From: Parcubacteria group bacterium
Lineage (GTDB): Bacteria; Patescibacteriota; Minisyncoccia; UBA6257; UBA11618
Direction: 5' to 3'
Assembly: GCA_943357895.1 (NCBI GenBank)
Contig: CALRGO010000005.1
Coordinates: forward strand, 1-35,554
DNA: 35,554 nt
Of the stretch, positions 2,845 through 6,001 are shown in pieces (the stretch's first letter is position 1; each line of letters opens with the position of its first letter). A program made the position numbers and the translations under genes. Under the pieces are notes generated by a model that was not told the DNA's origin, did not search any database, and was given only the letters and a program-made list of their open reading frames with translations.

Positions 2845-2959
2845 CAAAGTCGTGACTTTAGGCTCCACGACCAAAACCTTGTATCTCCCAACAACCCGTG
2901 AAGGTGTGTTGGCTTTAATTAAGTAATCCACGAGCAGCTTCCGCTACCCGTGCCTTGTT

Positions 2960-3737
2960 CATGCTTAACCCGCATGTCGCCATGCGGCATGGACTATATC
3001 TTCATCCTGTCTTTCAGAATTTGCGCTTTTATGGGATGAAACGACCCGATGCAACTGGCAAATAGTTTCTGGCTTCGTGCCGAGATAAATATCCGCCAAT
3101 AATCAGGATCAACTCGTTTACTTGGATTATGGATCTTACCAGAGGTAATACCCATAGCTTCCAATATTTCTTTAAGTGCGGCGATTTTCTGATAATTCTT
3201 CTGCACGAGCTGGATATAAAATCTATCCGCCGTGCGTGGAACACCGCCTTCTGCGTCAAAAAATCCCCGCACATATGCAGATTGCGCCTGCTGGCTTTTC
3301 AAAGAAAGCGGATCATGCTTGAAATCCAGTTTTGGACATAATGTTTCCAAAACATGCAAATCACGCATTTTTCCCTCCTTGTAAATCCAAGAATTCGAGC
3401 CGATGTTTTTTAAGAGCACCTGCAAGGTCTTGAGCCAACGGACATCTTTCTGCACGAAACGAATTCTTCTCCCTTTATTTAACGAAGCATCATGCAACGC
3501 TCCGTTCAAATACGCTATTATTTCTTCTTCAGACATAGGAGCTTGGCGTATAGTCTCTGAGGACTCTCTTTCAATAACGCATTGAAAGGTTGCCTGCTGA
3601 TTTTCTGCACCGAACGCATTTTCACACATGTATCTATTATATCATGCGTAGCGTCGGATACTCAGGAGTTCCAGCATATAGCCAAGTTTTTAATGCTGCA
3701 TTACTGCAACTAGTCGCAACTTATGCAGATTGCATCA
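2960..3737 (-). mobile_element. group I intron (778 nt) after 16S U1498
   Basis: Interrupts AAGTCGT|AACAAGG, with 5' exon ending in U and intron ending in G. The IGS GCGACT pairs exon AGTCGT with a U-G wobble. P/Q/R/S elements are ATGCTGGAA, AATCAGCAGG, CAGAGACTA and AAGATATAGTCC. Confidence 0.95.
2994..3536 (-). CDS. LAGLIDADG homing endonuclease inside the group I intron
   Basis: Motifs YLNGALHDAS and YVRGFFDAEGG. The likely start is MSEEE (3536), just after the R element, because the upstream 31 codons overlap the ribozyme core. The stop lies within the S element. Confidence 0.9.
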   Translation of the reverse strand: MSEEEIIAYLNGALHDASLNKGRRIRFVQKDVRWLKTLQVLLKNIGSNSWIYKEGKMRDLHVLETLCPKLDFKHDPLSLKSQQAQSAYVRGFFDAEGGVPRTADRFYIQLVQKNYQKIAALKEILEAMGITSGKIHNPSKRVDPDYWRIFISARSQKLFASCIGSFHPIKAQILKDRMKI

Positions 3738-3821
3738 ACGACTTCGTCCGTGTCACCGATTCTACCCTGATTCGGCGAGGCCGAACTTCAGATATCCCCG
3801 GCTCCCCTGACGTGACGGGCG

Positions 3822-4349
3822 AGAGTCCTCCGTAAACTCGGAGTTGACATCCCCACGTAGCGAGCGGATTTCCCGCACTACGCGAGCTCAAACTTTTTTA
3901 ATTTCGTATGAGAGAATCCTTCCCCAGCACCACTTTTACTCATGGTGTTTATATATATGACATTGTTTTTCAAAAAAACTATGTTTTCTATACACAAACA
4001 TTTTTAGTAAAAGTGGTGCTGGGTACTATGATCCAGCTGACTTCTTACGCCGCGTAAGTTCAATTATATCATATCACGGATATGATAACGGCATAAGATC
4101 TCATCGGGTTAGTACGTATTCTCTTCCTAACATCCCGAGCGAACCTTTTTAAAATATCTTCCCCATCCTCACCGCCTATTTCCTTGATGGGTCGATATGG
4201 TTCTTTTTTTGCTCGGGCTATTATTCGCCTCCGGATCCTCCGCCATGTCCCTCGCGGACCATGACTATCCTTCGACTACGCTCTTTTGACGGACAAAAGA
4301 GGTATGGATTTTAACCATATAGATTACGTACCTGCCGATCGCGGTTTTT
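3822..4349 (-). mobile_element. ORF-less group II (IIC-like) intron (528 nt) at 16S about 1399/1400
   Basis: Interrupts GTACTCAC|CGCCCGTC. Domain V is CGCGTAGTGCGGGAAATCCGCTCGCTACGTG (CGC triad, 2-nt bulge). J2/3-DIII reads GAAGTCAGC..CATAGTACCC..GGGGAAGGA. DI closing pairs are ATCGG/CCGAT and GTACGTA/TACGTAC. Confidence 0.85.
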
Positions 4350-4694
4350 GTGAGTACAGGACTCGAGAACGTATTCACCGTGGTATAGCTGACCCACGAT
4401 TACTAGCGATTCCAGCTTCATGAGGGCGAGTTGCAGCCCTCAATCCGAACTGAGACCAGTTTTGGGGATTAGCTCCGCCTTACGGCTTGGCAACCCATTG
4501 TACTGGCCATTGTAACACGTGTGTAGCCCAAGGCATCAAAGGGCCATGCTGATTTGACGTCGTCCCCACCTTCCTCCCAGCACACAACGCACCTTATATA
4601 TAAGATGCGCTCTGTGCTGGGCAGTTTCCTGCGACACTTGTAACGCAGAATGGGGGTTGCGCTCGTTTCCCCACTGAAGGGAACGTCTCACGAT

Positions 4695-4725
<31 letters not shown>

Positions 4726-6001
4726 CACTTGTCCCTTGAGAGGACTGCCAGTCTTTCGATAGGCATTCAAGTACATGTCTAGCCTTGGTAAGGTTCTTCG
4801 TTTACCGTCGAATTAAACCACATGTTCCACCGCTTGTGCGAGTCCCCGTCTATTCCTTTGAGTTTTAATCTTGCGATCGTACTTCCCAGGCGGCTGATTT
4901 AACGCGTTAGCTACGCCACTCCGAGGGTCGATACTCGAAACAGCTAATCAGCATCGTTTAGGGCGTGGACTACAAGGGTATCTAATCCTTTTTGATCCCC
5001 ACGCTTTCGCGATTGAGCGTCAGGGATGCCCCAGCTACCTGCCTTCGCCTTCGGTGTTCCCCACAATATCAACGGATTTCACCCCTACACTGTGAGTTCC
5101 AGTAGCCTCTAGCACCCTCTAGTCACGCAGTATTTCACGCTAGTCCGAGGTTGAGCCTCGGTATTTGACATGAAACTTACGCGACCGCCTACTCGCTCTT
5201 TACGCCCAATAAATCCGGATAACGCTCGGGGCCCTCGTATTACCGCGGCTGCTGGCACGAGGTTAGCAACCCCTTATTCCATGGGTACCATCATTTGTTT
5301 TTTCCCCATGAAAAGCAGTTTACAGACCAAGGTCCTTCATCCTGCACGCGGCGTCGCTCGATCAGGCTTGCGCCCATTGTCGAATATTCTCGACTGCTGC
5401 CACCCGTAGGTGTACGAGCCGTGTCTCAGTCTCGTCGTTGGAGAATGGCCTCTCAGCCCTCCTATCCGTCATAGCCTTGGTGAGCAGTTACCTCACCAAC
5501 TAGCTGATAGAGTCTAGGCCGTTCCCGAAGCCCCTTGCGGGTTTACTCTTGCGAGACCATCTGGAATTACCCCGTCTTTCGACGAGCTGTGCCAGACTTC
5601 GGGGTACGTACCAAGATATTACTAACTCGTTCGCCGCTAAACTATGTAATCCGCAACCTTTGATGTAATCTCAGCTACTTCAAACATAGTCCCGCTCGAC
5701 TTGCATGCCTTATCCACGCCGCCAGCGTTCATCCTGGACCAGGATCAAATCCTCTGTGTAAAGCTTCCGGCTCATGGCTTTCAGTTTTTAAATTGCTTCA
5801 AACACTCAATGCCGGTCGCCAAAAGCTATTCGTTTATTGGGACAACTAGAAAATTCTTATTTCGTATTGAGTTGCCAATTTGCTGTCAGTTCAGCGTTTT
5901 CTGGAAAAACATATCCGCCTCTATTTCGGCTAAGTAGCCGGAACAGGGGCGGATGCATTTTCGTGTTGCGTGCAGCCGCTTGTAAATCGATAAGTCAGTT
6001 C

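Follow-up and report, generated by a model that had tools for sequence, protein, structure and literature searches.

How does an intron whose ends depart from the consensus of its class at both splice sites bring the two halves of a ribosomal RNA together? The question is raised by the only 16S rRNA gene seen in the 528-kb genome of a Parcubacteria group bacterium. The gene lies in a stretch of 35,554 nucleotides (positions 1 to 35,554 of contig CALRGO010000005.1, assembly GCA_943357895.1; hereafter the window) and is interrupted between C1399 and C1400 by a group II-type intron of 528 nucleotides (nt). A hairpin loop of this intron carries nine contiguous bases complementary to the ligated exons, five of them to the 5' exon and four to the 3' exon. 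We consider it likely that this loop is exon-binding site 1 (EBS1) with a contiguous, extended delta contact of the group IIA kind, which would align both exons on one guide in a probably hydrolytic intron without EBS2.

The genome comprises 528,474 bases in 9 contigs, is 94% complete and is of the type found in the candidate phyla radiation (CPR). Its bacterial 16S rRNA gene runs on the minus strand, where it is matched by Rfam RF00177 at 4303-5760 and resumes beyond two interruptions. Read directly on this strand, the conserved 16S sequence ...GAAUACGUUCUCGAGUCCUGUACUCAC breaks off at 4350, such that the 5' exon ends in ...GUACUCAC at this position and the 3' exon begins with CGCCCGUCACG at 3821; a second break lies at 3738/2959. 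The exon ends are fixed beyond inference from 16S conservation, because assembled metatranscriptome contigs of two runs from two studies (X5 and X8) place 3821 directly next to 4350 and lack precisely the 528 nt in between, the joint being unambiguous ('both' = 0). The X5 and X8 contigs also join 2959 to 3738, leaving out a 778-nt group I intron, and one RNA contig of 274 nt spans all three exon pieces (2865-2959, 3738-3821 and 4350-4444) with 0 mismatches. Both introns of the gene are in this way documented as absent from rRNA in environmental RNA. The elements at the junction are the following:

3822-4349, minus strand: group II-type intron, 528 nt, without an open reading frame (ORF), skipped in the X5/X8 RNA contigs and homologous to the same-site introns of relatives.
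4350-4354, minus strand: intron-binding site 1 (IBS1), the last five bases of the 5' exon, CUCAC, from direct reading and the RNA joint 3821 to 4350.
3818-3821, minus strand: first four bases of the 3' exon, CGCC, from direct reading and the RNA joint.

We take IBS1 to be 16S positions about 1395-1399 and CGCC to be about 1400-1403, in the register of the 1392R primer. In 201 genomes of the order, 84 of them with an uninterrupted site, all 85 matches from uninterrupted 16S genes have U at 1396, and the 5' exon sequence CUCAC is on this comparison native to the host lineage. Separately, intron domain I (window 4033-4354, minus strand) is seen at low depth (2-13) in the contigs of all four RNA runs, and two RNA contigs cross the 5' splice site by 3-5 nt, which suggests precursor or DNA carry-over; RNA depth figures and the uncovered parts of the stretch are not taken as evidence here.

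The exon-binding hairpin and its surroundings can be described line by line as follows:

4162-4191, minus strand: EBS1 hairpin with a 6-bp stem, CCCAUC/GAUGGG, and an 18-nt loop, from direct reading, the minimum-free-energy fold and compensatory changes in 6/6 stem pairs.
4168-4172, minus strand: EBS1, GUGAG, partner of IBS1 CUCAC, near-invariant in 81 aligned relatives.
4173-4176, minus strand: predicted extended delta-like guide, GGCG, complement of 3' exon positions +1 to +4 (CGCC), from column counts and covariation at +1.
4192-4198, minus strand: 5' strand of a lower stem, AUAUC, and the invariant GA of the internal loop below the hairpin, with compensatory changes in 4/4 lower-stem pairs.
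4154-4161, minus strand: invariant GAA of the internal loop and the 3' strand of the lower stem, GAUAU, from the alignment of relatives.

The stem strands CCCAUC (4191-4186) and GAUGGG (4167-4162) enclose the loop, the last nine bases of which, GGCGGUGAG (4176-4168, minus strand), directly abut the 3' strand of the stem. Given the exon ends GUACUCAC and CGCCCGUCACG, GGCGGUGAG is the exact reverse complement of the ligated junction CUCAC|CGCC. The sequence-only reading of this locus had described precisely this, a guide loop complementary to 5 nt of the 5' exon and 4 nt of the 3' exon, and its junction is the one present in the RNA contigs. The hairpin is part of the minimum-free-energy fold, with the loop open, and the whole intron folds far better than shuffled sequences (z = -9.0). 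Counting both strands, the guide 9-mer occurs once in the window against 0.22 times expected (100 dinucleotide shuffles), and the base composition of the 528-nt intron predicts 0.0018 occurrences inside it. The calculated duplex energy is -17.1 kcal/mol for the 9-mer as opposed to -4.7 kcal/mol for EBS1 alone.

A DNA search locates the intron in 10 of 61 related genomes, the window's own included, with every examined copy at the same 16S site. These same-site introns measure 635-983 nt in the relatives, and most encode a single-motif LAGLIDADG ORF of about 141 amino acids; the window intron is 90% identical to the ORF-bearing copy of G002 and 66-69% identical to others over domain I. An alignment of eight endonucleases led to 368 relatives in one-genome-per-species contigs, and all 80 of the loci examined among these 368 have the intron at the same 16S site, following a 5' exon ...TG(T/C)ACTCAC. 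Family counts given below refer to 85 distinct introns from 88 loci. The 354-column alignment of domains I-III contains 81 of the 85, with L060, L094, L003 and L009 left out since an anchor motif was not found in them. The alignment of domains V and VI contains 77, the eight left out being L027 and L029 (3' end outside the locus), L009 (domain V motif unmatched) and L058, L087, L091, L003 and L010 (long insertions in or after domain V). As an aside, the CPR-type intron and the U1396 signature also occur in L020, L026, L063, L030 and L059, which belong to assemblies labelled Gammaproteobacteria, Brevinema or Spirochaetia; these contigs may be mis-binned.

Across the 85 relatives, the hairpin together with its 4-bp lower stem is paired in 95% of cells and shows compensatory changes in 10/10 pairs, yielding a covariation score of 0.805 compared with 0.286 for shuffles (0/500 reach it) and at most 0.143 for slid partners. 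The observation is real and far beyond chance, and we read the hairpin as the EBS1 stem-loop of domain I of a group II intron.

The guide itself reads GGYGGUGAG in 80 of the 85 distinct introns, 46 with U and 34 with C at the variable position, and the remaining five carry AGCGGUGAG (three introns), GGCAGUGAG (one) or GGCAGUGGG (one). A match to the guide pattern at position 119 of L075 proved false, the alignment placing AGCGGUGAG at the proper position. Among the 81 aligned introns, the EBS1 columns are G81, U81, G81, A80/G1 and G81, and the columns that face the 3' exon are G79/A2 at +1, U44/C37 and never a purine at +2, G81 at +3 and G78/A3 at +4, preceded by a base that is G in 49, A in 16, C in 10 and U in 3, with a gap in the remaining three. 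On a tree of these 81 introns, +3 does not change at all, +1 changes twice and +4 three times, and +2 switched at least 16 times, always exchanging C and U, either of which pairs with G1401. Unconstrained columns of the loop undergo 16-23 changes over 3-4 states; the column just past +4 undergoes 17 over 4 states, so that conservation ends abruptly at +4.

At +1, the exon also varies. In L054 and L092 the guide base beside EBS1 is A, and the 3' exon of each opens with U where C is near-universal. These introns do not group as sisters on the tree: the clade below their common ancestor takes in 34 of the 81 leaves. No column of the 354 other than the +1 guide position gives them a rare state in common. 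Because these are two independent compensatory changes from G-C to A-U, we conclude that the G adjoining EBS1 pairs with the +1 base of the 3' exon, as in group IIA. When a coordination-loop EBS3 of the IIB/IIC type was sought, no other column of the 354 was found to change with exon U1400 in L054 and L092. Likewise, neither mutual information (maximum 0.19 bit, with +2) nor shared rare states revealed an intramolecular partner of the guide. The column pattern supports the view that selection acts on all four guide bases opposite the 3' exon in the way expected of base pairing, which would mean that the whole family maintains a 4-bp extension of the 3' exon pairing under selection. We also note the U at 16S position 1400 in these two CPR genes, at about 1993 in L054 and about 931 in L092, as an observation in its own right.

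From the structure of the hairpin, its conservation, the covariation at +1 and the exact in vivo junction, the following course of events is the most likely. Pairing of GUGAG with IBS1 would place the 5' splice site upstream of the GUGYG-equivalent, at a distance of 5 nt. The G that directly precedes EBS1 would contact the first base of the 3' exon as a IIA-like delta, and not by way of the coordination-loop EBS3 of IIB/IIC introns, and the next three guide bases (GGC here, GGY in the family) would lengthen the helix to +4. Both exons would then lie side by side on a single 9-nt guide for ligation, with the freed 5' exon held by this loop only. The absence of EBS2 and of a branch adenosine, together with the 5' linker, argues that the first splicing step is probably hydrolytic, and we infer that the pairing at +2 to +4 may contribute to the second step.

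The remaining anatomy of the intron, in 5' to 3' order of the RNA, is as follows:

4345-4349, minus strand: 5'-terminal linker AAAAA, from the splice site to the GUGYG-equivalent; 5' ends in the family are mostly AAUAA followed by AAGCGC.
4340-4344, minus strand: GUGYG-equivalent CCGCG, with conservation in the family limited to GCG, from the alignment of 5' ends; L009 has GUGCG here.
3909-4035, minus strand: long AU-rich hairpin, expanded from the short domain III hairpin of relatives, from the fold and from comparison with L004 and others.
3852-3886, minus strand: domain V, with a 10-bp lower stem, a 2-nt 3' bulge, a 4-bp upper stem and a GAAAU loop, from the 77-sequence alignment.
3825-3848, minus strand: domain VI, a helix of 3+5 bp whose 5' strand carries an AA bulge, with compensatory changes in 8/8 pairs.
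3822-3824, minus strand: 3' tail UCU, where the family consensus is AAU, from 3'-end counts in 77 relatives.

Domains V and VI are those of a group II intron. The helix of domain V is 99.8% paired in the 77-sequence alignment, with compensatory changes in 6 pairs, and its base CUCG/UGGG (CGC triad, G.U pair) does not vary across 72 distinct rows. Taken together, domains V and VI are paired in 98% of cells with 14/22 pairs compensatory, and score 0.529 compared with 0.171 for shuffles (0/500 reach it) and at most 0.111 for slid partners. The proposal, originally made from the letters of the window, that this is a group II-type intron with an exon-binding loop is supported. In the 77-sequence alignment, no bulged branch-point adenosine is present on the 3' strand of domain VI, and EBS2 is absent from the intron. 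Independently of this, L003 and L010 (also L058, L087 and L091) carry structured insertions of 40-110 nt in the 3' strand of domain V or directly behind it, which split the upper part of the helix from the conserved GGGAAC.

In L004 and others, GGUCGCCUAGGCGACU stands in place of the 3909-4035 hairpin and is followed by the ORF; in the window, domain IV, which holds the endonuclease ORF in relatives, has shrunk to about 20 nt just downstream of this hairpin. The hairpin, 127 nt long, AU-rich and near-perfect, replaces a domain III hairpin of 16 nt in the relatives. Two sites in another genome (G056:C32) are 96% identical to the initial 26 nt of this hairpin, so that a small, mobile palindrome may have been inserted here. 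Overall, the intron is a compact, ORF-less, IIC-like group II intron of a LAGLIDADG-associated lineage, the introns of which measure 447-528 nt without an ORF.

At its 5' end the intron has AAAAA and CCGCG instead of the textbook terminal GUGYG, the motif being shifted by 5 nt with GCG alone retained. At the 3' end, where the textbook has AY, the window intron ends in CU, and AU is found in 51/77 relatives. The 3' tails of the 77 are AAU in 50, AUU in 19, UCU, UUU and ACU in two each, and AGU and CAU in one each; the terminal U is present in 77/77, and the ..UCU of the window is by this count a rare variant (2/77). The sequence-only reading had proposed that the terminal consensus is lost and that the extended guide replaces it in defining the 3' splice site. 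The first part holds insofar as the 5' consensus is displaced by the 5-nt linker. The second does not, as the same GGYG is present in relatives with the usual ..AAU/..AUU ends (69/77); since relatives with normal AAU ends carry the extension too, it is not a compensation for the odd 3' end of the window intron.

Introns with the same architecture are also present at a neighbouring site. A metagenome scan with the domain V of the family followed by CACCGCCCGTCA gave 0 matches, and a scan with AWTCACCGCCCGTCA gave at least 119 stretches, of which 80 were examined and 6 had a 16S 5' exon upstream, the rest being unrelated. The sister comparisons refer to six introns at 1396|1397 from metagenome contigs, among the matches listed. 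Their junction, GUACA|CACC, lies 3 nt upstream of the site in the window, their 5' end reads AAAUAAAUGCGCCUGGCAG, and they share the CGA-hairpin-GAAG frame and a homologous endonuclease. Domain I of the sisters is collinear and 46-57% identical with that of the 1399|1400 family (62-69% within the family), and domain V has the same CUCGC...GUGGG base. The guide loop of the sisters contains G+UGUAC, which pairs 5/5 with GUACA and, among the matches listed, also pairs at +1 in 6/6. The longest frame of one intron at this site, L168 (146 amino acids), is unlike the LAGLIDADG endonuclease and contains no GLxDGEG motif.

A larger set is provided by Table S4 of Liu et al. (2026; PMC13190283), which lists 62 rns-1396 introns at GUACA|CACCGC from giant sulfur bacteria and from six CPR or uncultured records. 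In this table, the ten-mers termed 'EBS1' all end in G+UGUAC plus one base, such that a G capable of pairing at +1 is present in 62/62 rows, and pairing at +3/+4 is mixed. Because its junction CUCAC|CGCC lies 3 nt further downstream, the window intron represents a sister lineage of rns-1396 and not a member. Judged from the two sets of guides, the part facing the 5' exon and the +1 base follow the target, which amounts to a natural retargeting. The earlier suggestion that the guide might be reprogrammable holds for the 5'-exon part (G+UGUAC for GUACA|CACC), and the comparison at other sites extends this to +1, pairing beyond it being rare and +3/+4 pairing present in 0/6 sisters.

The extended reading has to be weighed against a simpler one, in which EBS1 and the adjacent +1 base alone recognise the exons, and GGY is kept for loop geometry, for a tertiary contact of the ribozyme or for a host or intron-encoded protein, its match to G1401-C1403 being incidental. 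The sisters speak for this view: among the matches listed, they pair at +2 in 3/6 and at +3 and +4 in 0/6, despite the same linker and architecture, and the mixed pairing in Table S4 of Liu et al. (2026) points the same way. Since sisters with the same linker and a similar domain V lack the +3/+4 pairing, the ribozyme type does not require the extension, and the longer 3'-exon pairing would be a speciality of the 1399|1400 family rather than an architectural necessity. Also in favour are L024, L073 and L075 (3/85), in which an A at +4 faces an unchanged C without compensation, and the modest effect of the extension in the Clostridium tetani intron C.te.I1, where, in the portion of the study available, the splicing intermediate rose from about 10% to no more than about 20% in extension mutants (PMC4024640). 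What this simpler view leaves unaccounted for is the identity of the bases themselves: G, G and Y are exactly what pairing with C, C and G predicts, +2 is never a purine in at least 16 changes, conservation stops sharply at +4, next to a column with 17 changes and 4 states, and no covarying partner is found within the intron. We therefore regard recognition by EBS1 and a single further base as unlikely.

Beyond the sisters, the three mismatches and C.te.I1, further points count against the extended guide. Positions +2 to +4 of the exon show no natural variation among the relatives and, because they never vary, compensatory proof is not available for these three pairs; the C/U alternation at +2 is one-sided and a transition, the commonest type of substitution. 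The RNA evidence consists of assembled contigs, in which the joined form is visible and its origin is not, and an intron-less strain with identical exons could contribute; the intron-containing form is present in DNA runs that may be the source. Finally, Rfam returns no group II or other intron family for the window intron at E values up to 10, which we attribute to the loss of domain IV and the expansion of the domain III hairpin to 127 nt. RF01998 (group-II-D1D4-1) is found in 9/10 relatives at 29-41 bits over the region from J2/3 to domain III, three of them reaching the gathering score of 35, and RF00029 matches domain V weakly in two relatives. Matches of microRNA families in Rfam to the AU-rich hairpin are spurious.

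A bolder form of the extended reading is that, in this CPR lineage, the loop has become a continuous guide of 9-10 nt that alone specifies both splice sites, a natural counterpart of P1/P10 in group I introns or of U5 loop I, with EBS2, the branch site and the terminal 5' consensus shed, such that a change of nine bases would suffice to move the intron. The 3-nt shift between the sister families hints at such retargeting. We consider this form quite doubtful. If the extension is functional, the ORF-less introns of 447-528 nt would offer a compact system from nature in which to study how exons are aligned on one guide.

The preservation of the 3'-terminal AAU and of an invariant last U throughout the family, which indicates that other determinants of the 3' site remain, would suit a view in which the extended pairing is real but acts as an antisense clamp, either keeping the 1395-1403 strand out of the rRNA helices of the decoding centre until ligation or holding the ligated product, with the choice of the 3' site not its main role. 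The 9-bp duplex is strong (-17.1 kcal/mol) and both exons are highly structured rRNA; the sister family, however, does without the extension in nearly the same rRNA context, and we judge a clamp improbable. Chance complementarity, or an internal guide of the group I type (P1/P10), which the group I intron 84 nt downstream in the same gene might bring to mind, can practically be dismissed: the motif is kept in 80/85 relatives with 0.0018 copies expected within the intron, the 5' exon ends in a C paired with G and not in a U.G pair, the intron ends in U and not in G, 170 nt of intron precede the guide, the intron has no match to RF00028, and domains V and VI are group II structures.

The downstream group I intron (window 2960-3737, minus strand), the second intron of the 16S gene, is matched by RF00028 at 55.7 bits, carries a LAGLIDADG ORF and is inserted at ...GAAGUCGU|AACAAGG. 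Further on, at about 2917-2935 (minus strand), the 3' end of the 16S reads ...GUGGAUUACUUAAUUAA, and the usual CCUCC anti-Shine-Dalgarno sequence seems to be missing; the E. coli counterpart of this end is, we presume, GGAUCACCUCCUUA.

Both the intron family and the kind of pairing are already in print, and the novelty of the finding is modest; it is mainly a clean annotation. The rns-1396 family, with which the comparison begins, is reportedly also attributed to Salman et al. in 2012. In the sections available of Liu et al. (2026, Genome Biology and Evolution, PMC13190283), rns-1396 introns are described as LAGLIDADG group II introns on a IIC backbone in giant sulfur bacteria and some CPR. 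They share with the window's family the 5' linker, the lack of EBS2, a single-motif LAGLIDADG ORF in domain IV, a collinear domain I, a similar domain V and the G adjoining EBS1. The site of rns-1396, by contrast, is 3 nt upstream, its EBS1 is UGUAC and its pairing past +1 is sporadic. EBS3 is placed elsewhere in these sections, with triplets that are inconsistent (CGU, AGA, UGA, UUA, AAA and UAG). The 5' linker has likewise been described for rns-1396 and for fungal rRNA introns, and displaced 5' ends, the lack of EBS2 and branch-less forms are known, in the portions consulted of these sources, for rRNA group II introns with LAGLIDADG ORFs (Li et al. 2011, via Zimmerly and Semper 2015, PMC4424553; Liu et al. 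2026, PMC13190283).

From its gene, site, host group and intron RNA, the last being the same as in LAGLIDADG-bearing relatives, the window intron can be assigned to the LAGLIDADG-type family of CPR 16S inserts termed 16IS9. In the available text of Tsurumaki 2024 (J Bacteriol, PMC11270868), group II-like inserts in CPR 16S genes are reported only at position 1400 (class 16IS9); these mostly encode single-domain LAGLIDADG endonucleases, and 14/53 are ORF-less, like the copy in the window. Differences are the absence of domain IV and the 127-nt hairpin expansion in domain III of the window's copy. The terms EBS, IBS and exon binding have 0 occurrences in that text, and our literature search found no description of the extended pairing for the CPR 1399|1400 family, although older structure drawings could already depict it.

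The contact itself has a close precedent; the sequence-only reading had noted that group II introns typically pair with only about 1 nt of the 3' exon. In C.te.I1, which lacks EBS2 and the branch A and has a 5' spacer of 8 nt, the EBS1 loop forms a delta-IBS3 helix that can reach 4 bp; as set out in the part available of McNeil and Zimmerly (2014, RNA 20:855, PMC4024640), this helix is supported by compensatory mutagenesis and reflects a switch from IIB to IIA-like recognition of the 3' exon. The window intron resembles C.te.I1 in the 5' spacer before GUGYG, the loss of EBS2 and of the branch A, the enlarged EBS1 loop and the IIA-fashion contact with up to four contiguous pairs. C.te.I1 differs in its class B/IIB backbone, its location in a protein-coding gene, its alternative 3' sites and its lack of a homing endonuclease, and represents a single intron with experimental pairing, whereas the pairing proposed here is drawn from comparative sequence across a widespread family.

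In group IIA introns such as Ll.LtrB, according to the portions available of two sources (PMC4424553; Enyeart et al. 2014, PMC3898094), the EBS1 loop also touches both exons through delta-delta', with the base 5' of EBS1 contacting +1. There, delta is usually a single pair, and the backbone of the window intron is IIC-like, not IIA. On the comparative data, a IIC-like, endonuclease-associated lineage reads its 3' exon through the EBS1 loop in the IIA fashion and not through a coordination-loop EBS3, which bears on the annotation of rns-1396 and 16IS9 introns by Liu et al. (2026).

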